Positions 35,596-46,610 are shown, numbered from the stretch's first letter. The stretch is 64,000 nt of DNA from Thermoanaerobaculia bacterium (GCA_035276475.1 DATELQ010000037.1:2482-66481); one strand, 5' to 3'. Notes: generated from the sequence alone by a model not told the origin. Made by a program: numbers and translations.

Positions 35596-37566
35596 TCAGC
35601 GCGATTCCGCCGTCGTTCCCTCGTACTTTTTCCACTGCTCCGTACGCCCGCCGAGGTGCTTGGCGAGAAAGGCCTCCACCCGGGCGTAGAAGTCGAGGGC
35701 GTTCTCGGGGCGGTCGAGCCCGTGCCCCTCGTCGGGGTAGACGATGTACTCCACCTCGCGCTGATTCTCGCGGAGCGCCTTCACCATCGCGTCGGCGTTG
35801 GCGATCGTCACGCGCACGTCGTTGGCGCCCTGCGCGATCAAGAGCGGCGCGCGGATGTCGCCGGCGTGGTAGAGCGGCGAGATGGCGCGGTTCAAGGCCT
35901 CGTCGTGCTCGACGTCGCCGACGCGCCGCCGCCAGCGGAGCATGATCCCCGACCAGTACGTCGGGAAGCTGCGGAAGAGCGTGGCCACGTCCGCCGGCCC
36001 GACCATGTCGACGCCGCAGGCGAAGAGATCCGGCCGCTGCGACAGCGCGCGCAGCGTCGCATAGCCGCCGCCCGAGCCCCCCATCGCCGCGATGCGCTTC
36101 GGATCGGCGATCCCCTGCGCGACCGCCCACTTCACGGCGTCGTACAAATCCTCCTGCGTTCCGCGGCCCCACTGGTTCGTGGAGGCGTTGAGGTACTTCA
36201 GACCCAGGCCGGTCGAGCCGCGATAGTTGACCTGCAGCACGGCGTAGCCGCGGTTGGCGAGGAACTGGATCTCCGCCTCGTAGTCGGCCGTGTCGCGGTA
36301 CCAGGGGCCGCCGTGGATCATGAGGATGAGCGGAAGGTTCTTCGCCTCCACGCCGGGTGGGATCGTCAGGTAGCTGACCATCTGCAGCCCGTCGCGGGCC
36401 GGAATGATCACCGGCTTCTTCGCCGCCAACTGGTAGCCATCGAGCGCCGGGTAGTCTTTGAAGAGCGGCGTGAGGCGCCGCGTGCGGCGGTCGAACGTGT
36501 AGTACGACGGCGGCAGGTCGCTGCGCTCGGCGAGGATGATCCAGGTCTTGTCGTCGCGGTCGCGGCTCAAGAGAGTCAGGAACGCCGGCACCTCTTTCTC
36601 GATCCGCGCGAAGTCGGCCTTCATGGCCGGATCGAGGAAAACCCAGTGCGGCGTCGTGTAGTTGAAGCGCACCGCCTGCAGCGCGTGCGTGAGCGGATGG
36701 CGGATGACGGCGAGGGCGCCGTCGGAGTCGACGTCGGAATCGGGATCCTGGGCGATCACGCCGAGCTCCTTGCCGGTGGCGGCGTCGATGCGCACGAGCC
36801 GTCCCTTGTCGGAGTGCATCGCGGAGTGGACCATCAGCACCTTGCCGCCCGGCTCGAAGCCGGCGATCAGGGACCCGTTGACGACCTGCCCGTCGAAGAG
36901 GGCCTGTTCGAACGGCATGGTCACGAGGTCGCGCCACGGCGCGGCCGCGCTGTCGCGCACGCGGATGATCGTCTGTCCCTTCGCGTCGAAGGCCGTGGCG
37001 GCGCGGACGACGAAGTCCTCGTCCGTCGTCCAGGTCAGCACGTCGCCGGGGTTCTTCGCCGCGAGGGTGAGGGCGCCGCTCCGGAGATCGACGCGGTACA
37101 TGTCGAAGCGCTGCCGGTCGCGCAGGTTGAGGGCCACGAGGACGATGTGCGGGTGCGCGAGGTCGACCTTGAGGTTCTGCGCCTTCACGCCGCGGAACGG
37201 CGTGAGGTCGCGCACGTTGCCGTCGGCGAGGTCGGCGGCGTAGAGGTGGTTGACCTCGTCCCCTCCGCGGTTTTGCAGATAGAGCAGATGCTGCCCGTCG
37301 GCGGCCCAGCGATAGAAGTAGAGCGGTCGCTCGCGCTCCGTGGTCAGGAGCCGCGGCTTCTCCGCGCCGCTCGTCGGCTGGACCCAGACGTTCAATACGC
37401 CGTGGTCGTCGGGCGCGAGCCAGGCGATGCGCTTGCCGTCCGGCGAGAGCTGCGGCGTGGAGCGCTCGGGATTGCCGAACAGCAGCTCCCGCGGAATGAG
37501 CCGCGGCAGGTCGGCAGCGAGCGTGGTGGCAGAGAGGAGAGAGAGGAGAAGAGCCAGGCGTCGCAT
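35596..37566 (-). CDS. S9 family serine peptidase (acylaminoacyl/dipeptidyl peptidase type), secreted
   Basis: 656 aa; signal peptide; propeller; GGSGGGYATL nucleophile motif; C-terminal D...H. Confidence 0.85.
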   Translation of the reverse strand: MRRLALLLSLLSATTLAADLPRLIPRELLFGNPERSTPQLSPDGKRIAWLAPDDHGVLNVWVQPTSGAEKPRLLTTERERPLYFYRWAADGQHLLYLQNRGGDEVNHLYAADLADGNVRDLTPFRGVKAQNLKVDLAHPHIVLVALNLRDRQRFDMYRVDLRSGALTLAAKNPGDVLTWTTDEDFVVRAATAFDAKGQTIIRVRDSAAAPWRDLVTMPFEQALFDGQVVNGSLIAGFEPGGKVLMVHSAMHSDKGRLVRIDAATGKELGVIAQDPDSDVDSDGALAVIRHPLTHALQAVRFNYTTPHWVFLDPAMKADFARIEKEVPAFLTLLSRDRDDKTWIILAERSDLPPSYYTFDRRTRRLTPLFKDYPALDGYQLAAKKPVIIPARDGLQMVSYLTIPPGVEAKNLPLILMIHGGPWYRDTADYEAEIQFLANRGYAVLQVNYRGSTGLGLKYLNASTNQWGRGTQEDLYDAVKWAVAQGIADPKRIAAMGGSGGGYATLRALSQRPDLFACGVDMVGPADVATLFRSFPTYWSGIMLRWRRRVGDVEHDEALNRAISPLYHAGDIRAPLLIAQGANDVRVTIANADAMVKALRENQREVEYIVYPDEGHGLDRPENALDFYARVEAFLAKHLGGRTEQWKKYEGTTAESR

Positions 37567-37618
37567 GCAGAAAGTTTACGGCGGGGTGGAGGGGGCGGCA
37601 GGTGAACATCCGTCGACG

Positions 37619-37996
37619 TCACATCCCCGGCTCGAACGGCGCGGCGATCGCCAGCAGCGGCAGCAAGACGCAAGGCGTGATCGCCGCGATCAGCATCTGC
37701 TGCCGAAGCGGGCGGCGGCGCACGAACGGCATTGCCCAAACGAGTGCGGTGATGACGGAGCCGATGATCATCCAAAGCAAAAGGATGAAGGCGACGACCG
37801 CCGCCATCGAATGCGTATGCCCTTTCGGGATGTAGTTCCAGACGGCGTAGAACAGGTCGACTTCGAATTGAGAAAAGAACGGGCGAACGCCGTGGTATGC
37901 GCCGTAGAACGCATAAAAAACACGCGGGATCGTGCCCGCGACGCCGAAGACCGCGGAGCCGGTGGCAACGGCGGCCGCGTAGTCACGCGCAGTCAC
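37619..37996 (-). CDS. small integral membrane protein of unknown function
   Basis: 125 aa, GTG start 1 nt after sensor-kinase stop; 3-4 predicted TM helices. Confidence 0.5.
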   Translation of the reverse strand: MTARDYAAAVATGSAVFGVAGTIPRVFYAFYGAYHGVRPFFSQFEVDLFYAVWNYIPKGHTHSMAAVVAFILLLWMIIGSVITALVWAMPFVRRRPLRQQMLIAAITPCVLLPLLAIAAPFEPGM

Positions 37997-37997
37997 C

Positions 37998-40763
37998 CTA
38001 CGCCGCCGCCTGCACCGCCGTCATCGTCTGCCGGTCGAGATCCGCGAGCAACGCGCCGGCGTCGGCGTAGCGGTCCTTGGGATTCTTGGCCAGGCAGCGC
38101 ATCACCATGGCGTCGACGGCGCGGCCGACGTCCGGGCGCACCTCGACGAGCGGCTTCGGCGTCTCGGTGATGTGCGCGGTCAGCACGCCCGTCAGCGATG
38201 ACGACGTGAACGGCTTCACCCCGCCGAGGATCTCGTAGAGCATCACCCCCATCGAGTAGACGTCGCTGCGCGCGTCGAGCTGCTGGCCCTGCACCTGCTC
38301 GGGGCTCATGTAGTGCGGCGTCCCCACGATTAGCCCCGCCTGGGTCATCCCTTCCTTCGCCTCGGCCATGCGCGCGATGCCGAAGTCCATCAGCTTCACT
38401 TCGCCCTTGTGGTCGATCAGCACGTTCTGCGGCTTGATGTCGCGGTGGATGATCCCCTGCTCGTGCGCGGCCTGCAGCCCGCGGCAGATCTGGCGCGACA
38501 GGCCCATGGCCGCGCGCGCGGCCATGCGGTGGTCGGGCGCCTCCTCGAGCAGCTCGGCGAGCGTGTAGCCGCGCACGTACTCCATGGAGATGAAGTAGAC
38601 GCCGTCAGCCTCGCCGTAGTCGTACGTGCGGAGCACGTTGCGGTGCGTGATCTTGCGCGCCAGGCGGATCTCGCGCTTGAAGCGCTCCAAATCCTCGGGG
38701 GACTTTTGCATCACGTCGCCGGGCAGCGTCTTGATCGCCACGGTCTCGTCGAGCTGCGTGTCGATGGCGCGGTAAACGACACCCATGCCGCCGCGCCCGA
38801 GGATCTGCTCGATGCGGTAGCGGTTCGCGAAGAACTGGCCTGCCGTCAACTCCGCGAGGGCGCCGGCGGGCGCGGTCTGCCCCGGCACGGTCGAATCGAC
38901 GCGCATCGTAGCCATCGAGCTCGTCGTCTGCCCGAGCGTGCGCATCATCGTCGAGCCGAGATTCGCCAGCGGCACCGCCGCGACGGGGAGCGGCTGCGGC
39001 AGCCACCGCAGCGCCACCTGCTCGTGCGTCGACGACGACAGGATCTCATTCCCCGCCGCCTGCGCCGTCTCGTACGAGATGTACGCGTAGCCGGTCGGCG
39101 CGTGCCATGCGAAGACTTCCGCGAGCAGCGGCGCGTTGCCGACGACCGCGAGACCGCTCTCCTGCTGTAGGTCGACCGAGCCGGTCACGAACTCGCCCGT
39201 GGCGATGCCGACGCCGATCTGCATCGTGTTGCCGTTGCCCTGCGCCACCAGCTCCTCGTTGATCGCGCGCGCGGCGCGGATGGCGTGGATGATGCCGCGC
39301 TCGCCGCGGAAGACGCTGACGAGGCGATGCCCTTTGATCTCGCGGACGACGCCGTCCTGGCGGTCCACTTCCGCTTCCTGCAGCTTCATGACGCGGGCGA
39401 CGTCGGCGATGACGTTGGCGGCGTCGCCGCCGCCGACCGTCGGCGGCAGTCCGCGCAGGTCGGTGACGAGCACCGTCCCCTCTTCGAGCTTGGCCGGCTC
39501 GCTCTTGCGGATGGCCTCGCGCTCCTCCGACCGCGCCGCCATCTGCTCGTACAGCTCCTCGAGCTCGGCCTTGTCGCGCAGCGACGTGATCATCTTCGCG
39601 AACGAACGCCCGAGGATGCCGACTTCGTCCTGGCGGTCGATGGCGGGGTGGACGTCGTAGTCGCCGTGCGTGACGGCTTGCGCGACGCCGGCCAGCTCTT
39701 CGATCGGCCGCGTGATGCGCTTGGCGATGAACCAGGAGAGGATGAAGGCGAGCAGCACCGCCACTCCGCCGCCGAGGAGGAGCGCCTTCTGGATCTCGCG
39801 GAACGGCGCGAGCTCGACGTCGAGCGAGCGGAGGAACACCGCGGCGCCGACGGTCTTGTTGCCCGAGGTCATCGGCTCGCCGGTCATGACGTACTGCGAG
39901 CGGTCGATCGTCACGGTTTTCGGCGGCATCTGCTTGCCGGTTCGGAAGATATCCTCGACGCCGGTCATCTGCTGCATGGTGAATTGAGGGGCGTTCTTGG
40001 AGCGGCCGGGCAAGCCGGCCTGCGAGACAAAGACCACGCCGGCGTTCGTCACGTTGGCAATCTTGTTGGCGAAGAGATCGTCGATGGCGACGCCGTTGAC
40101 GAAGTAGCCAATGCGCACGTTGTTCACGCCGAGGACCAGTGGCGCGACTGCGACGTGATAGAGATGATTGCCATCGGCCAGCACACCGGTGACCGCCGGA
40201 AGCGTGGCGTCGTCGACGATCTGCTTCACCAACGCCGATTCAGAGGCCATGTTCTCGTTCGGCGCTTGCGTCAGTGTCGGGCGATCGGTGCGCCCCATCA
40301 GATTGCCCTGCTCGTCGAGCAGCATCATCAGATCGGTACCGAGGGCTTCTTTTCGTTGCGTGAGCTGATCGGCGATGTCGAGATAGTTGATCGCAGGCGG
40401 CGCCGTCGGATTGGCCGGATCGGACGTCGGGTGAATGGCGTTCTGCAGGTAGGGGACGACGTTCGGATCATTCCCAAGCAGCCGCGTCGTGAGAGACAGC
40501 CGGGACAGCCGCTGTCTTTCGAATTCGCCGAACAACTGCGCCGCGCTCGAGATCGACTTATCCGCCGTCGCATGCGCGATCACCTGCGCGCGCTGCAGCG
40601 TCAGCCCCACCGCCACCGCCACGACGATGGCGATCAAGAGCGCGGTGAGAAAGAAAATCTTCCAGACCAGCGGGAACCGCGCCTTCTCCACCGCCATCTG
40701 CCGCGGCGTGACCGCGGGCATCGTTCCCGGCGTGACCGTGGTGTCGAGCGTCTGCGCGGTCAC
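37998..40763 (-). CDS. membrane sensor protein: TM / periplasmic domain / TM / HAMP / degenerate class-III cyclase-homology domain / C-terminal Ser/Thr protein kinase
   Basis: 921 aa; TM at about 35-57 and 335-357; HAMP (AKRITRPIEELAGVAQAVTHGDYDV); CHD-like block (GTVLVTDLRGL ... MQIGVGIATGEFVTGSVD ... AVVGNAPLLAEV) lacking the second metal Asp; kinase with GRGGMGVVY, AIK, HRDIKPQN, DFG, SPE. Confidence 0.8.
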   Translation of the reverse strand: MTAQTLDTTVTPGTMPAVTPRQMAVEKARFPLVWKIFFLTALLIAIVVAVAVGLTLQRAQVIAHATADKSISSAAQLFGEFERQRLSRLSLTTRLLGNDPNVVPYLQNAIHPTSDPANPTAPPAINYLDIADQLTQRKEALGTDLMMLLDEQGNLMGRTDRPTLTQAPNENMASESALVKQIVDDATLPAVTGVLADGNHLYHVAVAPLVLGVNNVRIGYFVNGVAIDDLFANKIANVTNAGVVFVSQAGLPGRSKNAPQFTMQQMTGVEDIFRTGKQMPPKTVTIDRSQYVMTGEPMTSGNKTVGAAVFLRSLDVELAPFREIQKALLLGGGVAVLLAFILSWFIAKRITRPIEELAGVAQAVTHGDYDVHPAIDRQDEVGILGRSFAKMITSLRDKAELEELYEQMAARSEEREAIRKSEPAKLEEGTVLVTDLRGLPPTVGGGDAANVIADVARVMKLQEAEVDRQDGVVREIKGHRLVSVFRGERGIIHAIRAARAINEELVAQGNGNTMQIGVGIATGEFVTGSVDLQQESGLAVVGNAPLLAEVFAWHAPTGYAYISYETAQAAGNEILSSSTHEQVALRWLPQPLPVAAVPLANLGSTMMRTLGQTTSSMATMRVDSTVPGQTAPAGALAELTAGQFFANRYRIEQILGRGGMGVVYRAIDTQLDETVAIKTLPGDVMQKSPEDLERFKREIRLARKITHRNVLRTYDYGEADGVYFISMEYVRGYTLAELLEEAPDHRMAARAAMGLSRQICRGLQAAHEQGIIHRDIKPQNVLIDHKGEVKLMDFGIARMAEAKEGMTQAGLIVGTPHYMSPEQVQGQQLDARSDVYSMGVMLYEILGGVKPFTSSSLTGVLTAHITETPKPLVEVRPDVGRAVDAMVMRCLAKNPKDRYADAGALLADLDRQTMTAVQAAA

Positions 40764-41426
40764 TCAGTAATCCCTCGGCGGCGCCGTGTAGGGCTTGCCG
40801 ACCTTGTTGAGGTGCGAGGCCGACTTGTAGTTGCTGCTGTCGAGCGTCAGGGCCACGTTCGTCGCGCCGGCGGCGCCGACGTCGACCATCGTCGCCGTCT
40901 GCCCCCCCTGCTCGTTCCAGGCGACGACCTTGTACTTCCCGGCCGGCACGTCGTGGATCGTGTAGTTGCCGGCGGCGTCGGCGAAGACGTAGTACGGCGT
41001 CGGCATCACCTGGATGACGGCGGACATGTTCGGGTGCACGTTGCAGTAGACGTTGACGACGCCGGGTGTCGTGAACTTCTGCGACTTGCCCGCGCCCTTG
41101 CGATAGAGCCCGAGGTCGAACGTGCTCGCCGAGGAGAGGGAGAAGAGGTTGTGCGAGATCGGATCGTCGTTCGGGAACTCCACCGTCGATCCGACCGGCA
41201 CCGCCAGCACGTGCGGGATCAGTGTCTTGCCACGCGTCGTCATCGTGACCTTCGCGGGCGGCTTCGGCGCGGGCTTTCCGGCGGCGGGCTCGAGCCAGAC
41301 CAGCGTCTCGGCCACGACCGGCGTTTGTCCCTTTTTCGTCACGAAGTTGACTTTGCCGCCGACCGTGGCGGCGGCGAGCGGCGCGGCGGCCGCGACGAGG
41401 CTCGCCAGAGCGAGAAGTCGTTTCAT
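40764..41426 (-). CDS. secreted cupredoxin-like protein with carboxypeptidase-regulatory-like (CarboxypepD_reg) domain
   Basis: Start at MKRLLALASLVAAAAPLAAA; His...Cys-x2-His-x2-Met arrangement (ISHNLF ... YCNVHPNMSAV) typical of type-1 copper sites; C-terminal YVFADAAGNYTIHDVPAGKYKVVAW. Confidence 0.55.
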   Translation of the reverse strand: MKRLLALASLVAAAAPLAAATVGGKVNFVTKKGQTPVVAETLVWLEPAAGKPAPKPPAKVTMTTRGKTLIPHVLAVPVGSTVEFPNDDPISHNLFSLSSASTFDLGLYRKGAGKSQKFTTPGVVNVYCNVHPNMSAVIQVMPTPYYVFADAAGNYTIHDVPAGKYKVVAWNEQGGQTATMVDVGAAGATNVALTLDSSNYKSASHLNKVGKPYTAPPRDY

Positions 41427-41516
41427 GTCAATTAGCTCCGGAGGTTCGACATGGTAGCACAAGGACTTGTGCGGAATTGATGTTGCTATTTGGCATGGAA
41501 AACGTATCATCTAAAA

Positions 41517-41841
41517 CATCAACGAAGAGGAAAACACCCGAGACCGTTGCAATAAAAACCGCCCACGGGTCCTTTCCATCCGTAAGATTTACGGCTGTGC
41601 TCTTTGACTAGATGACAAGTTCCCGCTCCTCCCCTCTACCTCGGGGCAGGCAGGAGCGGTCGATCCGGTCCGCGGCGTGGCGAGGTGGGTTACGGGCATG
41701 CACGTGACGCTTGCCGCGGGTCCGCCGGAAATTCATGGGGGAGGAGGTACTGCGTTCGATGGATTGTTCTCATAAACCTGAGGGGGAGAGTTCCTGACCC
41801 CCACCCCGGAAGGGCGCCTGCAAAGGCGCCCTTTTTCATTT
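41517..41841 (+). ncRNA. candidate small RNA (unknown family) ending in an intrinsic terminator
   Basis: No credible CDS in 41427-41844; AT-richer segment with TTGCTA-N16-TATCAT promoter-like boxes at 41483-41510; several internal hairpins; ends at terminator 41812-41841. Confidence 0.25.
41812..41841 (+). terminator. intrinsic terminator immediately upstream of tRNA-Leu
   Basis: gggcgcc-tgcaaa-ggcgccc followed by tttttcattt. Confidence 0.7.
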
Positions 41842-41844
41842 CCG

Positions 41845-41933
41845 GCCCCGGTGGCGGAATAGGCAGACGCAGCGGACTTAAAATCCGCTGCCGCGTAAGC
41901 GGCGTGCCGGTTCGAGTCCGGCCCGGGGCACCA
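41845..41933 (+). tRNA. tRNA-Leu (anticodon TAA)
   Basis: 89 nt; acceptor gccccgg/ccggggc, long variable arm, anticodon loop cttaaaa, T-loop ggttcgagtcc, encoded CCA. Confidence 0.9.
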
Positions 41934-41957
41934 CGACTCGGATATCATCCCCAGGCC

Positions 41958-43136
41958 ATGACCACCGCCGCAGCAGAGCCCACCGCCTCTCCCCTGACCC
42001 TCCTCTCCGAAGAAGAACAGATGTTCCAGCAGAGCGTCCGCGACTTCGCGGTCGAGAAGATCCGTCCGCTCGTGCACCAGATGGATCACGACGCCAAGAT
42101 GTCGCGCGAGCTCATCGACAGCTTCTTCGACCTCGGCATCATGGGCATCGAGGTGCCGGACCAGTGGGGCGGCGCGGGCTCGTCGTTCTTCACCGCCGTC
42201 CTCGTCGTCGAGGAGCTCTCCCACGTCGACGCCTCCTGCGGCGTGCTCGTCGACGTGCAGAACACCCTCGTCAACAACGCCCTACTCCGCTGGGGCAACG
42301 AAGACCAGAAGTCGAAGTACCTCTCCATGCTGTCGAAGGACACGGTCGGCGCGTATGCGCTCTCCGAGGCGGGGTCGGGATCGGACGCGTTCGCGCTGGC
42401 GTGCCGCGCCGAGGACAAGGGCGACCATTGGGTTCTCAACGGCCAGAAGCTGTGGATCACGAACGCCTTCGAGGCCGGCGTCTTCATCGTCTTCGCCAAC
42501 GCCAATCCCGACGCCGGCTACAAAGGCATCACGGCGTTCCTGATCGAGCGCGACTTCCCCGGCTTCACCGTCGGGAAAAAAGAGGACAAGCTCGGCATCC
42601 GCGCCTCGTCGACGTGCGAGCTCATTCTCGAAGACTGCCGCGTCCCGAAAGAGAACGTCCTCGGCGAGCCGGGCAAGGGCTACAAGATCGCCATCGAGAC
42701 GCTCAACGAAGGGCGCATCGGCATCGGCGCGCAGATGATCGGCGTCGCGCGCGGCGCGCTCGAGCACGCCATCTCGTACGTGAAGGAGCGCAAGCAGTTC
42801 GGCACGCGCATCTCCGAGTTCCAGGGCGTGCAGTTCCAGATCGCCGAGGCGGCGACGGAGCTCGAGGCGGCCCGGCTCATGGTCTACAACGCCGCGCGGC
42901 TCAAGGACGCCAAGCAGCCGTTCCTCCGCGAGGCGGCCATGGCCAAGCTCTTCTCCTCGAACGCGTGCGAGAAGATCACTTCGCTGGCGGTGCAGCTCTT
43001 CGGCGGCAACGGCTACACGAAGGAGTACCCGGTCGAGAAGTACTGGCGCGACTCGAAGGTCGGACAGATCTACGAGGGGACGTCGAACATGCAGCTGGCC
43101 ACGATCGCCAAGACGATTCTGACCGACCGGCTGTAG
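41958..43136 (+). CDS. acyl-CoA dehydrogenase
   Basis: 392 aa from MTTAAAEPT; ACAD N/middle/C domains, catalytic-base region YEGTSNMQLATIAK. Confidence 0.9.
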   Translation: MTTAAAEPTASPLTLLSEEEQMFQQSVRDFAVEKIRPLVHQMDHDAKMSRELIDSFFDLGIMGIEVPDQWGGAGSSFFTAVLVVEELSHVDASCGVLVDVQNTLVNNALLRWGNEDQKSKYLSMLSKDTVGAYALSEAGSGSDAFALACRAEDKGDHWVLNGQKLWITNAFEAGVFIVFANANPDAGYKGITAFLIERDFPGFTVGKKEDKLGIRASSTCELILEDCRVPKENVLGEPGKGYKIAIETLNEGRIGIGAQMIGVARGALEHAISYVKERKQFGTRISEFQGVQFQIAEAATELEAARLMVYNAARLKDAKQPFLREAAMAKLFSSNACEKITSLAVQLFGGNGYTKEYPVEKYWRDSKVGQIYEGTSNMQLATIAKTILTDRL

Positions 43137-45161
43137 TCATTCGATGTAGCCGACGACGACCGTACCACGCGGAACTCTCGTTCCCGCTTTCGGTTCCTGA
43201 TGCCGCACGTAGGCCGAATGAGAGGGCTTCCCGCTGTATTGCGACAAGAAGCGAAGCCCGTATTTCTCGACCTCTGCTCTCGCCTGGTCTGCGCTCATCT
43301 TGAGGATGTACGGGACGACGACTTCGTCAGACAAATTGCGACCGGTCGACACATACACGGTGATGACCGATCCGCGCTTGACGAGCGTTCCTGGCGGCGG
43401 GTCCTGGCGCACGATGAGGCCGCGTGCGGCTCTGCTGTCGACGGATTCTGCACGCAACGTCAACCCCAGCCACGGGAGGTCGTCGGACGCCTGCATCCAT
43501 GTCTCTCCCCTGAGCTCGGGCACGATGACCGGCGGAGGTGGAGGCACGGGCGTAGGCGTGGGAGTAGGGGCAGATGACGACGACGATGGAGGTGGAGGTG
43601 GATGCGGCGGGCTCGGAACGAGCGGCGATGCGAGCTGCGCATATGCCTCCGAGTAGCTCTGTGCCAATTCGGAACGACCCAGTTTTGTCAGCGCTACGTC
43701 CGCGGCATGGAACGGAGCGGCGAAATCTGGATCGGATTGCGTGGCCCGCAGGAACGAAGCGAGTGCCTCCTCCCAATTTCCGCGGCGTGCGTGCAAGTAG
43801 CCCATGTAGAGGTGCGCGGGTGCGAACGAGGGGTCGCGCCGCAGGACGTCCTGGTATTGCGCGGTGGCGCGCTCGACGTCATTCGCCGCCTCGGCGACGC
43901 GCGCCAATCCGACGCGCGCGAACAGCGACTCCGGCTCGAATTTGAGGGCCAGGTTGAAATACCTCCGAGCCTCTTCGAGATTCGCGTTGGCGCGCAGCAG
44001 GGCCACCTCGCCGCGATGATAGGCAGGCTTGGCATGGTTCGGTTCGGCGCGGCCTTGGAGCGCCGGCTCGAGCACCTTGTCATACGCACTCTCGGCGCGT
44101 TCCAGGAGTTTTCGTGCCCCATCGGCGTCTCCTCGGCGATAGGCGGTCCCAGCTTCGTCAAGATAAAAATCTCCGGCGTCGTTGTTGGAAACGAATGCCG
44201 AGGGATTGATCTTGATAGCCCTCGCCAAGCGTTCCCCAGCTTTCGTGAAATCGCCCACCAGACGGTACGCCGTAGCGAGATTGTGATTGTAGACAGCGAC
44301 GTGACGCTCGTCGCCGGCGGAGGGCTCGCCACTTTTGACATAGGCCGCAATGGCCTTCGCCGGTTCCGCCCAATCGACATAGACATTGCCGAGGATTTCG
44401 AACTGCCCTTTGTCCTCAGGAGACCAGATCGTCCGGAAGCGCGCTTCACGATACGCGGCCGCGCGCTCTTTGTCGGAATCGAAGTTCGGAATCAACTGCA
44501 CGGACGGCCGCGCCGGCCGCATGGAGAGAATCACGTTCGCGTTGGCGTCGACGGCCTTGCGCACGCTCTCCTCGCCCGCAGGGCTGACCTCTGGTGACGC
44601 GCCGCCGGACGGAATCGTGAGACGGCGGAGAGGCGTCAGCCGGCGCCCGAGGCGTGCCTCCGGCGGCGCGACGGGCATGACCTCGAGCTCTCCTTCGAGT
44701 TGGAGAATCTCCGTTCCCGCCTCGGTCACTTCGACCTGGAATTCCGTTCCCTTTGCGGCAAGCGTCACGGTTTGCGTTCTTGCCTCGAAAAATCCCCGCA
44801 AGGTCGCAAACAACTTTCCAACGAGCAGGAAGATGGACTTCGAATTCGCCAGTTCGAACGAAGTGACGCCGTGAACCGTGATGTCTGCTTCCGACGCGCC
44901 GAGGGACATGACCAGAACCGAGGCGCCCAAAACCTGGATCCGGTCGCCGGCACAGAGCGGCATCCCCTTCCGAACCCTCGTCGACATCTGCCGGCGGATG
45001 ATCTTGATCTGCTCCTCGCCGGCGGACTGGGTGCTGACCGAGCCGATCGCGATGCCGGTGATTCGTCCGACCACCGGCGTATTGCACGACACTTCGTCCG
45101 GGGCGGCAAATCCGCTGGCTGCAATGGCCGACAATGCGACGACAGCCAGCGCCGTGCGCAT
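43137..45161 (-). CDS. secreted FecR-domain / TPR / proline-rich linker / tandem PASTA-domain protein
   Basis: 674 aa; signal peptide; FecR-like LAAKGTEFQVEV; TPR array; PPHPPPPPSSSSSAPTPTPTPVPPPPPV linker; two C-terminal PASTA-like modules. Confidence 0.7.
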   Translation of the reverse strand: MRTALAVVALSAIAASGFAAPDEVSCNTPVVGRITGIAIGSVSTQSAGEEQIKIIRRQMSTRVRKGMPLCAGDRIQVLGASVLVMSLGASEADITVHGVTSFELANSKSIFLLVGKLFATLRGFFEARTQTVTLAAKGTEFQVEVTEAGTEILQLEGELEVMPVAPPEARLGRRLTPLRRLTIPSGGASPEVSPAGEESVRKAVDANANVILSMRPARPSVQLIPNFDSDKERAAAYREARFRTIWSPEDKGQFEILGNVYVDWAEPAKAIAAYVKSGEPSAGDERHVAVYNHNLATAYRLVGDFTKAGERLARAIKINPSAFVSNNDAGDFYLDEAGTAYRRGDADGARKLLERAESAYDKVLEPALQGRAEPNHAKPAYHRGEVALLRANANLEEARRYFNLALKFEPESLFARVGLARVAEAANDVERATAQYQDVLRRDPSFAPAHLYMGYLHARRGNWEEALASFLRATQSDPDFAAPFHAADVALTKLGRSELAQSYSEAYAQLASPLVPSPPHPPPPPSSSSSAPTPTPTPVPPPPPVIVPELRGETWMQASDDLPWLGLTLRAESVDSRAARGLIVRQDPPPGTLVKRGSVITVYVSTGRNLSDEVVVPYILKMSADQARAEVEKYGLRFLSQYSGKPSHSAYVRHQEPKAGTRVPRGTVVVGYIE

Positions 45162-46610
45162 TTACGTCCCCTCGTTCTCCGAAGGTTTGGCGGACAAAGC
45201 CGGCGCGGCTCCGCAGTAGTAATACGACGCAATGACGGCGACTGCGCCGTATCCGACGTCGAAGAGCACCGAAGCGCTGCGGTAGAAGATCCAGACCACG
45301 ATCGCGTACAGCACGAGGAGCACGATCAGGCCCGCGGGGAGCTTGCGCTTTCCGGCGACCTTCGTGTCGACTTCGATGTCTGACTTCGGTAGTGACGATC
45401 GGCCAAAGCCGGCGATCGCGCCGAGGAGGAGCAGCACCGAAAGGTTGGCCCAGCCGGGCAGCGTTCGCGGATAGGTGTTGCGCGACAAGTCGCTGAAAAC
45501 GCTGGCGTGAAGCTGATAGCCGTATGCCTTGACCTGAGGCGTGATCTCGCAACGCTCCCTCTCGGTCTTTACGCCGATAAGCACGATCTGTCCCTTGTAC
45601 TCGTTTGCAAGACTGGACAGACGCTTGAGCTCTTTCACATATGAGTCGCCTTCGCCGAAACCGCGCCGGCCATAGCGAAGCGGCATGGTGGCGATGTTGT
45701 GACCGGTCTCGTCGGATTCGATCGTGCAGGAAATGCGGTCGATCTCCCGGTCGCCGGCATAGAGGATCAGACGTCGCGCTTTGGTGTCGAGCCTGACGGA
45801 CGGCCGCGCCTTCGACGATGGACTCTTCTCCAGAATTCGCATCATGACCGCGAGCGAGGCATACGCATCTTCCGGCGATACCGCGACGTTTGCGGGGAGC
45901 TTCGACCGCGCCAGCACGTATTTGCGGACGTACTCCGTGGAGGCGCCATGCTCGAGCCGCTTTCCACCGACGTGGACCCATCCCCAGGCGACGTCTTTGA
46001 ATGCATCGAGCAGGTCGGGGGTGTCATCGTTGCGCAGATCAGCTCCGAGCAGGATGCTCGTGGTCGCGCTCTGCACGGCTTTCACCATTTCGGCGTTGGC
46101 GCTCTGATACTCCGCGCCGTCGTTCGGCGAGGGAAACGTCAGATCGAACGCGACGAACTTCGGCGCATTCGCGAGCGCCTGAAGGAACAAGGCGTGCTGC
46201 CGCCGCCATAGTTGTTCCTCTTGAGCGAAATTGCCGCGGACGTTCTCGAGCGTGTCTTTCTCGTCGATATACAGCATGTGCAGCGACGGCGTGGATCGCG
46301 CCGCGACGCTGTATTCCATCTGTTCGAGCTGCAGACGCTCGAGCCAGTCGTCGATGCCGAGAAGGTTGAGCAGGTGAGTGAATGAGGCTAGGGAGACGGC
46401 GAGTACGACGAGAAAGAGTTTCCACACGAATCGCGCACGGCGATGATTCGTGACCAGCAGGAGCTTCCGCAGCGTATGACCTCCGGACGTATGCAGATCA
46501 TGATACGCGCGACCGGCCTCGAGGATGCGATCGGGACGTACTGGCGCGACCGGCTGTAATTTCGCTGAAACGCTAGCGGTCTTTCCGTCACTACATAACG
46601 GAATGACCAT
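45162..46610 (-). CDS. stand-alone CHASE2 sensor-domain membrane protein (no output domain)
   Basis: N-terminal TM, about 300-aa extracytoplasmic CHASE2-like region, 3 C-terminal TM; start uncertain (ATG at 46610 would overlap the divergent gene by 8 nt; a downstream GTG is possible). Confidence 0.65.
   Translation of the reverse strand: MVIPLCSDGKTASVSAKLQPVAPVRPDRILEAGRAYHDLHTSGGHTLRKLLLVTNHRRARFVWKLFLVVLAVSLASFTHLLNLLGIDDWLERLQLEQMEYSVAARSTPSLHMLYIDEKDTLENVRGNFAQEEQLWRRQHALFLQALANAPKFVAFDLTFPSPNDGAEYQSANAEMVKAVQSATTSILLGADLRNDDTPDLLDAFKDVAWGWVHVGGKRLEHGASTEYVRKYVLARSKLPANVAVSPEDAYASLAVMMRILEKSPSSKARPSVRLDTKARRLILYAGDREIDRISCTIESDETGHNIATMPLRYGRRGFGEGDSYVKELKRLSSLANEYKGQIVLIGVKTERERCEITPQVKAYGYQLHASVFSDLSRNTYPRTLPGWANLSVLLLLGAIAGFGRSSLPKSDIEVDTKVAGKRKLPAGLIVLLVLYAIVVWIFYRSASVLFDVGYGAVAVIASYYYCGAAPALSAKPSENEGT

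Follow-up and report, generated by a model that had tools for sequence, protein, structure and literature searches.

Several described systems come close to parts of the locus reported here. In LuxP-LuxQ, a periplasmic accessory protein acts on a membrane kinase with a double PAS/Cache-like periplasmic domain, and the gene for the accessory protein is located in front of that for the kinase. A precedent for a secreted redox-active accessory protein controlling a membrane kinase is HbpS-SenS-SenR (PMC4991794). HAMP-linked class III cyclases carry a Cache-type sensor, a transmembrane (TM) segment, a HAMP domain and a cyclase-homology domain (CHD), and PknB/Stk1 PASTA kinases are membrane receptors with a canonical kinase domain. 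We describe here two adjacent genes, designated A and B, in a 64,000-nucleotide stretch of DNA from a Thermoanaerobaculia bacterium (GCA_035276475.1, DATELQ010000037.1:2482-66481; the whole stretch is called the window hereafter), which encode a predicted two-domain blue-copper protein and a TM receptor Ser/Thr kinase, respectively. In its N-terminal two-thirds, protein B has the same layout as the HAMP-linked cyclases, and with the PASTA kinases it shares the membrane-receptor nature and the kinase domain, which is predicted to be active in B. It differs from the PASTA kinases in that its otherwise ordinary kinase domain is placed at the unusual end, C-terminal and not N-terminal, its sensor consists of dCache and HAMP domains and not of PASTA domains, its membrane part comprises two TM helices, and a pseudo-cyclase is inserted. 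The best NCBIfam match of B was PknB_PASTA_kin (E=2e-99), which covers the kinase part and, with a score of 334, stays below the cut-off of 450.

The product of gene A (40764-41426, minus strand) is a Sec-secreted protein of 220 amino acids (aa), and that of gene B (37998-40763, minus strand) a protein of 921 aa. The TGA stop of A directly abuts the GTG start of B, and the motif GAGGG is located 8 nt 5' of this GTG. A preliminary description of the locus had given these open reading frames (ORFs), the zero gap between A and B, and a third frame, ORF C, starting 1 nt after B, all of which were confirmed on the minus strand. The scan of genomes, in which one genome per species was used, covered about 65 loci with B relatives, and A was found directly 5' of B in all 60 loci for which upstream sequence was available, one Gemmatimonadaceae genome included. 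This adjacency persisted at 43-50% identity, and in 25 loci, those in which the ends of both genes could be aligned, the gap between A and B ranged from -1 to 7 nt. The identities of A and B also co-varied (r=0.93 over 54 loci), for which phylogeny is partly responsible. A metagenome search that started from A returned 80 loci, all of them close relatives (at least 65% identical), and the periplasmic domain of B was found downstream of A in 58 of the 59 loci with enough sequence, the exceptional locus having a partial match to this domain slightly further downstream. The CHD and the kinase were present downstream of A in 42 of 42 and 36 of 36 loci with enough sequence, respectively, and the 80 loci contained neither fusions of A with B nor partners of a new type. 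We conclude that A and B are a translationally coupled two-gene signalling unit, conserved among the soil Thermoanaerobaculia and present in Gemmatimonadota in a CHD-less form. The preliminary description had proposed a module of three genes with gene-order conservation as a check, of which the coupling of A to B held in two phyla and the inclusion of ORF C did not.

The domain layout of B agreed with what had been read from the sequence before. Hydropathy placed the first TM helix at about aa 31-56 (40596-40673) and the second at about aa 327-347 (39723-39785), both on the minus strand like all features of B, leaving a periplasmic stretch of about 270 residues between the two hydrophobic segments, which is read as a dCache_3-like sensor (aa 57-326; 39786-40595). 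The dCache_3 family (PF14827) matched aa 131-313 with 25.6 bits in the whole protein and 28.8 bits when the domain was searched in isolation, against a cut-off of 25.7, and the match was stronger in the Gemmatimonadota orthologues (E<=1e-5). Comparison of the periplasmic domain with PDB sequences gave chance profilin matches only (E>=0.05), so that no solved relative was found by sequence. The HAMP domain (aa 348-397; 39573-39722) was recognized by PF00672 at aa 345-397 over all 53 positions of the profile (1-53) with E=2.2e-14 and 53.9 bits in comparison to a cut-off of 25, and the C-terminal Hanks-type kinase domain (aa 646-905; 38049-38828) by PF00069 at aa 649-900 with E=8e-56 and 189.7 bits in comparison to a cut-off of 31.7. 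The kinase motifs GRGGMG, VAIK, the alphaC Glu, HRDIKPQN, DFG and SPE all occur in B, with at least 95% of 54 species sharing them, and from these intact motifs the kinase is predicted to be catalytically competent. The mean pairwise identity was 0.82 for the kinase, 0.69 for the CHD and 0.54 for the periplasmic sensor. In public records the proteins of the A-B pair are named "protein kinase" and "hypothetical protein", and some B homologues carry the automatic JGI name "class 3 adenylate cyclase/predicted Ser/Thr protein kinase".

Between the HAMP and kinase domains lies a degenerate class III CHD (aa 429-600; 38964-39479), which had been noticed earlier as a cyclase-like block and to which Pfam is blind, but which is confirmed by searches of the PDB and by profile comparison. 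When aa 400-640 were compared with PDB sequences by phmmer, the Synechocystis cyclase Cya2 (2w01) was matched with E=1.5e-5, and a profile built from 20 family members matched 2w01 with E=4.6e-13 together with 11 further class III cyclases, including photoactivated cyclases, CyaB and Ma1120. Alignment of profiles by hhalign against 30 true cyclases gave a probability of 99.5% with E=3.8e-22 over 172 columns. An exhaustive comparison of the CHD segment with 1.84 billion cluster representatives returned about 16 clusters of its own family, followed by about 146 weaker matches; PF00211 was found in all 30 of the weaker matches that were sampled and HAMP directly upstream in 20 of them, while a kinase was found in none of the 30.

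The catalytic state of the CHD was assessed, with counts taken over 54 species, at the six canonical cyclase positions, for which the residue numbers of Rv1625c are used. In Rv1625c these are the metal-binding residues Asp256 and Asp300, the substrate-specifying Lys296 and Asp365, and the transition-state residues Asn372 and Arg376 (PMC4174876). The spacing of the six counterparts in B is identical. In class III cyclases, the substrate-specifying pair is Lys with Asp or Thr when ATP is used, and Glu with Cys or Gly when GTP is used. The first metal-binding Asp is retained in the motif VLVTD435LRG, where Asp435 aligned to Asp256 and was kept in 54 of 54 species. The second metal-binding Asp, which the preliminary description had reported as replaced, corresponds to His479 in KGH479, at the same 44-residue distance from Asp435 as Asp300 from Asp256 in Rv1625c, and is His in 51 species, Gln in two and Asn in one. 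At the substrate positions, Lys296 is replaced by Glu475 (49 of 54 species) and Asp365 by Ala539 (53 of 54), and at the transition-state positions Asn372 is replaced by Leu546, never being Asn in the family, and Arg376 by Val550, the family having Leu, Val or Ile and never Arg. Thus only one of six catalytic residues is retained and five are lost, with the replacements fixed across the 54 species, which bears out the reading of the block as an inactive-looking cyclase. Because the replacements are fixed and the identity of the CHD is above that of the periplasmic sensor, a comparison which indicates purifying selection on the CHD, the sequence evidence identifies the domain as a conserved and maintained pseudo-cyclase, not a decaying remnant.

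In Gemmatimonadota, the A orthologue has 218-240 aa with the copper ligands intact, and the B orthologue, which follows A after 1-33 nt, is a dCache_3-HAMP-Pkinase protein of 666-685 aa that lacks the CHD; the linkage was found in 3 of 3 further Gemmatimonadota contigs. Alignment showed that about 215 residues of the Thermoanaerobaculia B have no counterpart in these orthologues, and that this block extends from just past the post-HAMP "LRDK..L.E" helix up to the pre-kinase linker. Since the Gemmatimonadota pair lacks it, the CHD is an optional module of about 215 aa between HAMP and kinase. The conserved core is therefore the cupredoxin plus the dCache-HAMP-kinase receptor, and the pseudo-cyclase is an add-on and not an essential wire. 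As the nearest relatives of the CHD are HAMP-cyclases, its origin fits either a Cache-HAMP-cyclase ancestor that gained a kinase or an insertion of the CHD beside the HAMP domain.

Two further observations concern the Gemmatimonadota loci. The gene sucA, encoding the E1 component of 2-oxoglutarate dehydrogenase (ODH), was located about 100 nt downstream of A-B on the same strand in 4 of 4 loci (L066 7777-10503; L083 7783-10530; L084 7843-10632; L085 7851-10643). Ser/Thr-kinase control of ODH occurs in Actinobacteria, and by analogy the position of sucA next to the pair may point to the substrate pathway. Directly upstream of A, each of these loci has a divergent gene on the minus strand (L066 3684-5213; L083 3636-4925; L084 3669-4967; L085 3668-4909), the product of which measures 413-509 aa and has no Pfam match; the L066 copy of this protein ends in ...FGFEF, like an outer-membrane beta-barrel, and the gene does not adjoin A in Thermoanaerobaculia.

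Protein A, which the preliminary description had read as a secreted protein with a type-1-copper-like pattern and a CarboxypepD_reg-like domain, starts with a Sec-type signal peptide (aa 1-20, by hydropathy), followed on the minus strand by a cupredoxin domain at about aa 21-142 (41001-41366), a transthyretin/CarboxypepD_reg-like beta-sandwich at about aa 143-197 (40836-41000), which is indeed present, and a C-terminal tail at aa 198-220 (40767-40835). The putative copper ligands are His92 (41151-41153) together with Cys128, His131 and Met134 (41025-41045, both on the minus strand), and these four residues were invariant in 121 A homologues. When the profile of the A family was compared with the PDB, the C-terminal cupredoxin of the Nitrosopumilus NirK-like oxidase (9cck, E=6.5e-8) and the Nitrosopumilus blue copper protein (5fc9, E=7e-7) were matched, along with plastocyanin and many amicyanins, and in the alignment to 9cck, His92 and Cys128-x2-His131-x2-Met134 fall on the H...C-x2-H-x2-M positions of that protein. 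A has the Greek-key beta-sandwich fold of the cupredoxins, and its closest structural matches were amicyanin, plastocyanin, pseudoazurin and the NirK C-terminal domain (6hbe, 9cck). Many A homologues carry the JGI name "plastocyanin". Judged from these sequence features, A is a cupredoxin of the type-1 (blue) copper class that resides in the periplasm and has a putative copper site. Its tail, D-x-[RS]-x-[YF]...H-x-[ND]-K-x-G-x-x-Y...[DR]-Y-COOH, is kept in both phyla, with His205, Lys208 and Tyr213 invariant and the terminal Tyr conserved; the confidence of its model is low, and the tail is a candidate for a peptide by which A might dock to B.

Based on these results, we infer that A takes part in copper or redox co-sensing and that the pseudo-CHD acts as a transducer. 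A would be an extracytoplasmic co-sensor that binds the dCache domain of B differently depending on its load of copper or on whether this copper is Cu(I) or Cu(II), and the signal would then cross the membrane via the HAMP domain of B. In Thermoanaerobaculia, it would pass next through the pseudo-CHD, which would still dimerize head to tail, as class III cyclases do, and would thereby set the relative position of the two kinase domains and, with it, their trans-autophosphorylation and the phosphorylation of substrates. The pseudo-CHD would then be a lineage-specific transducer or regulatory add-on and not a source of cAMP or cGMP. As an explanation of the whole, the sequence of co-sensor A, dCache, HAMP, pseudo-CHD and kinase is given about an even chance of being correct. 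The more specific proposal that a blue-copper protein serves as a redox or copper co-receptor of a receptor Ser/Thr kinase, with the signal relayed through a pseudo-cyclase, is put forward tentatively and is somewhat unlikely to hold in full.

Several points weigh against this explanation. The binding of A to B is presumed, the copper site of A is putative, and the dimer of B is a prediction. For the CHD, Pfam Guanylate_cyc (PF00211) gave no match with the whole of B at E<=1 or with aa 396-651 alone at E<=10, and no PF00211 is on record for 120 B homologues; hmmscan, which had been proposed as a check, returned HAMP and Pkinase but not Guanylate_cyc, so that the CHD would have been discarded had hmmscan been the sole test. 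The AF2 model of aa 398-645, obtained with an alignment of 18 sequences, reached a pLDDT of 45, and the assignment of the CHD fold rests on sequence profiles, although the order of secondary structures in this low-confidence model (beta-alpha-beta-beta-alpha-beta) is compatible with the cyclase fold. Protein A scored 15.7 for Pfam Copper-bind (PF00127) in comparison to a cut-off of 21.2, and 19.4 for the amicyanin family TIGR02657 in comparison to a cut-off of 110.2; PF00127 is on record for some Gemmatimonadota A orthologues. The CHD-less orthologues imply that the basic pathway from A to the kinase runs without a CHD. In addition, no kinase substrate, FHA or PP2C phosphatase gene was found within 10 kb, and the dCache domain might need no partner to bind a small molecule.

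The last point leads to the alternative that survives best, which we consider unlikely but deserving of weight, namely that the two genes are co-expressed without co-sensing. A would then be a periplasmic electron carrier that never touches B, the dCache domain of B would sense a small ligand, and the linkage of the two genes would reflect regulation by B of the process that A serves, or a co-regulation of B with this process. The structural matches of A agree with this, as the closest of them are bona fide electron-transfer cupredoxins, and dCache domains typically bind small ligands (PMC4822843). However, in two phyla A is always next to B, the stop codon of one overlapping or touching the start codon of the other, while all other neighbours change, no conserved redox-enzyme partner gene occurs near A, and A has an extra beta-sandwich and a conserved tail (His205, Lys208, Tyr213) that are absent from plain electron carriers, all of which argue against this alternative.

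A distinctly improbable alternative concerns the CHD, which could keep ligand binding, with a nucleotide or metal at Asp435, Glu475 and His479, as an allosteric input to the kinase, or could have a weak non-canonical cyclase activity. Asp435, Arg437 and His479 show little or no variation, the replaced positions carry particular, fixed residues and not random ones, and the domain is more conserved than the periplasmic sensor; the pseudo-active site of mammalian adenylyl cyclase, moreover, binds forskolin (PMC4174876). Against this, the transition-state positions have changed from Asn to Leu and from Arg to Val or Leu, both substrate-specifying residues are lost, and a receptor of the homodimer type has no partner subunit able to supply the lost residues.

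ORF C (37619-37996, minus strand) encodes 125 aa with two hydrophobic segments and may not be a real gene. That this membrane protein works together with A and B as a three-gene module is very improbable. Its GTG follows the TAG stop of B after one base, and its codon-position GC pattern is coding-like, both of which would suit a third member of the module; its GC content at third codon positions (GC3) is 0.81 in comparison to 0.91-0.93 in the neighbouring genes. The frame is absent from close relatives, since other, unrelated ORFs follow B in loci L081 and L082 (93% and 86% identity of B), and a deletion of about 190 nt removes part of it across its first half in L002, where B is 91% identical. 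No homologue of ORF C was found in any of the 80 metagenome loci or in about 60 genome loci, and searches against Pfam, NCBIfam and PADLOC assigned it to no family, yielding one sub-threshold Pfam match only. Furthermore, a 6-bp GC hairpin followed by the T-run TGTTTTTTAT (window 37923-37940, minus strand) lies within ORF C, 58 nt past the stop of B, and could be an operon terminator, though its folding energy (z=-0.79) is no better than that of shuffled sequence. ORF C is thus either lineage-specific or spurious, and stands outside the conserved module.

A role of B in defence against phages, as a kinase like PD-T4-6 or MADS Mad6, suggested by matches to PADLOC PD-T4-6 (E=4e-97) and mad6 (8e-73) and to NCBIfam MAD6 (E=6e-53), was rejected as least probable of all because these matches are confined to the generic kinase domain (aa 640-919) and the NCBIfam MAD6 score of 180 lies far below the cut-off of 460, while no other defence genes are nearby and the conserved chromosomal position in two phyla and the periplasmic sensor are unlike mobile defence islands.

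The genes neighbouring the A-B pair are housekeeping genes, and the G+C content of the region is about 67%. A soil-metagenome contig in ENA matched the window, and MAGs labelled Thermoanaerobaculia (Acidobacteriota) matched the proteins. Gene A is separated from a divergent acyl-CoA dehydrogenase gene by a gap of 531 nt, which contains a tRNA-Leu(TAA) gene at 41845-41933 on the plus strand (Rfam 58.9 bits; also found by ARAGORN). This tRNA was the sole Rfam match in 37400-42100, with no riboswitch or leader 5' of A, and a scan for promoters and terminators gave sites no commoner than in shuffled sequence. An S9/Tricorn_N peptidase gene (window 35596-37566, minus strand) downstream of B is missing in L081, the 93%-identical relative, in which two Uma2 (putative endonuclease) genes are inserted between the acyl-CoA dehydrogenase gene and A (L081 755-1935); the flanks of the pair are fluid even among close relatives. 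Elsewhere in the window, a gene for a 674-aa protein that combines TPR repeats with a pair of PASTA domains and lacks a kinase domain, and one for a 421-aa CHASE2 protein abut each other with zero gap (43137-45161 and 45162-46427, both on the minus strand). It is unusual for PASTA domains to occur in a chain that has neither a kinase nor a PBP part, and this CHASE2 and TPR/PASTA pair may be another split sensor.

If the proposed co-sensing and relay are correct, the locus would provide a natural example of a pseudo-enzyme, with a Hanks kinase under the control of a class III cyclase scaffold, and the Thermoanaerobaculia and Gemmatimonadota pairs would offer a natural comparison, with and without the CHD, for determining its contribution. 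It would also be a candidate route of extracytoplasmic copper or redox sensing in two abundant and little-studied soil phyla, with the first cupredoxin to act as a signalling subunit and the first class III cyclase fold to be reused as a kinase regulator. It further exposes an annotation gap, as both the CHD and the copper site are missed by Pfam-based pipelines. No prior description of the B architecture or of a cupredoxin-kinase pair was found in searches of the open-access literature. Every domain was already known, and what appears to be new, as far as that literature shows, is the wiring within modular bacterial signalling.

In comparison to known systems, protein A shares the fold and the His...Cys-x2-His-x2-Met pattern with amicyanin, plastocyanin, pseudoazurin and the C-terminal cupredoxin of NirK (6hbe, 9cck), and its ligand loop C-N-V-H-P-N-M is equal in length to that of amicyanin. 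It differs from the amicyanin-type proteins by the added transthyretin-like domain and conserved tail, and by being tied genetically to a receptor kinase and not to a dehydrogenase or reductase. The arrangement of the pair resembles HbpS-SenS-SenR and LuxP-LuxQ, in which a ligand- or redox-sensing secreted protein is encoded beside a membrane kinase that it modulates from outside. Those receptors, however, are histidine kinases that work with response regulators, while B is of the Hanks type; the accessory role falls there to a haem-binding octamer or a periplasmic binding protein, whereas here it would fall to a cupredoxin, with a presumed contact between A and B. The HAMP-linked class III cyclases, such as Cya2 (2w01), are the nearest sequence relatives of the CHD of B, from which B differs by the loss of five of the six catalytic residues and by the addition of a Ser/Thr kinase, a domain found in 0 of the 30 sampled relatives, so that its output is presumably protein phosphorylation and not a cyclic nucleotide.

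Two other groups of proteins also combine a kinase and a cyclase fold in a single chain. The TOMM kinase/cyclase fusion (TIGR03903) joins, like B, a bacterial Hanks kinase and a CHD in one protein, but it is a cytoplasmic protein of roughly 1300 aa with an N-terminal kinase and is linked to bacteriocin biosynthesis; the order of kinase and CHD in B is the opposite, and B scored 135 bits against this family, in the kinase part only, in comparison to a cut-off of 705.75. The animal receptor guanylyl cyclases consist of an extracellular domain, a TM segment, a kinase-homology domain and a CHD, and their pseudokinase regulates a live cyclase. Like them, B joins a kinase fold and a class III cyclase fold, one of them dead, with no sign of common descent of the fusion. 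B is the mirror image of these receptors, its cyclase fold being predicted to be dead and its kinase live, with the order of the two reversed and a HAMP domain present, and, should the transducer role of the pseudo-CHD be borne out, it would be their mirror image in function as well.

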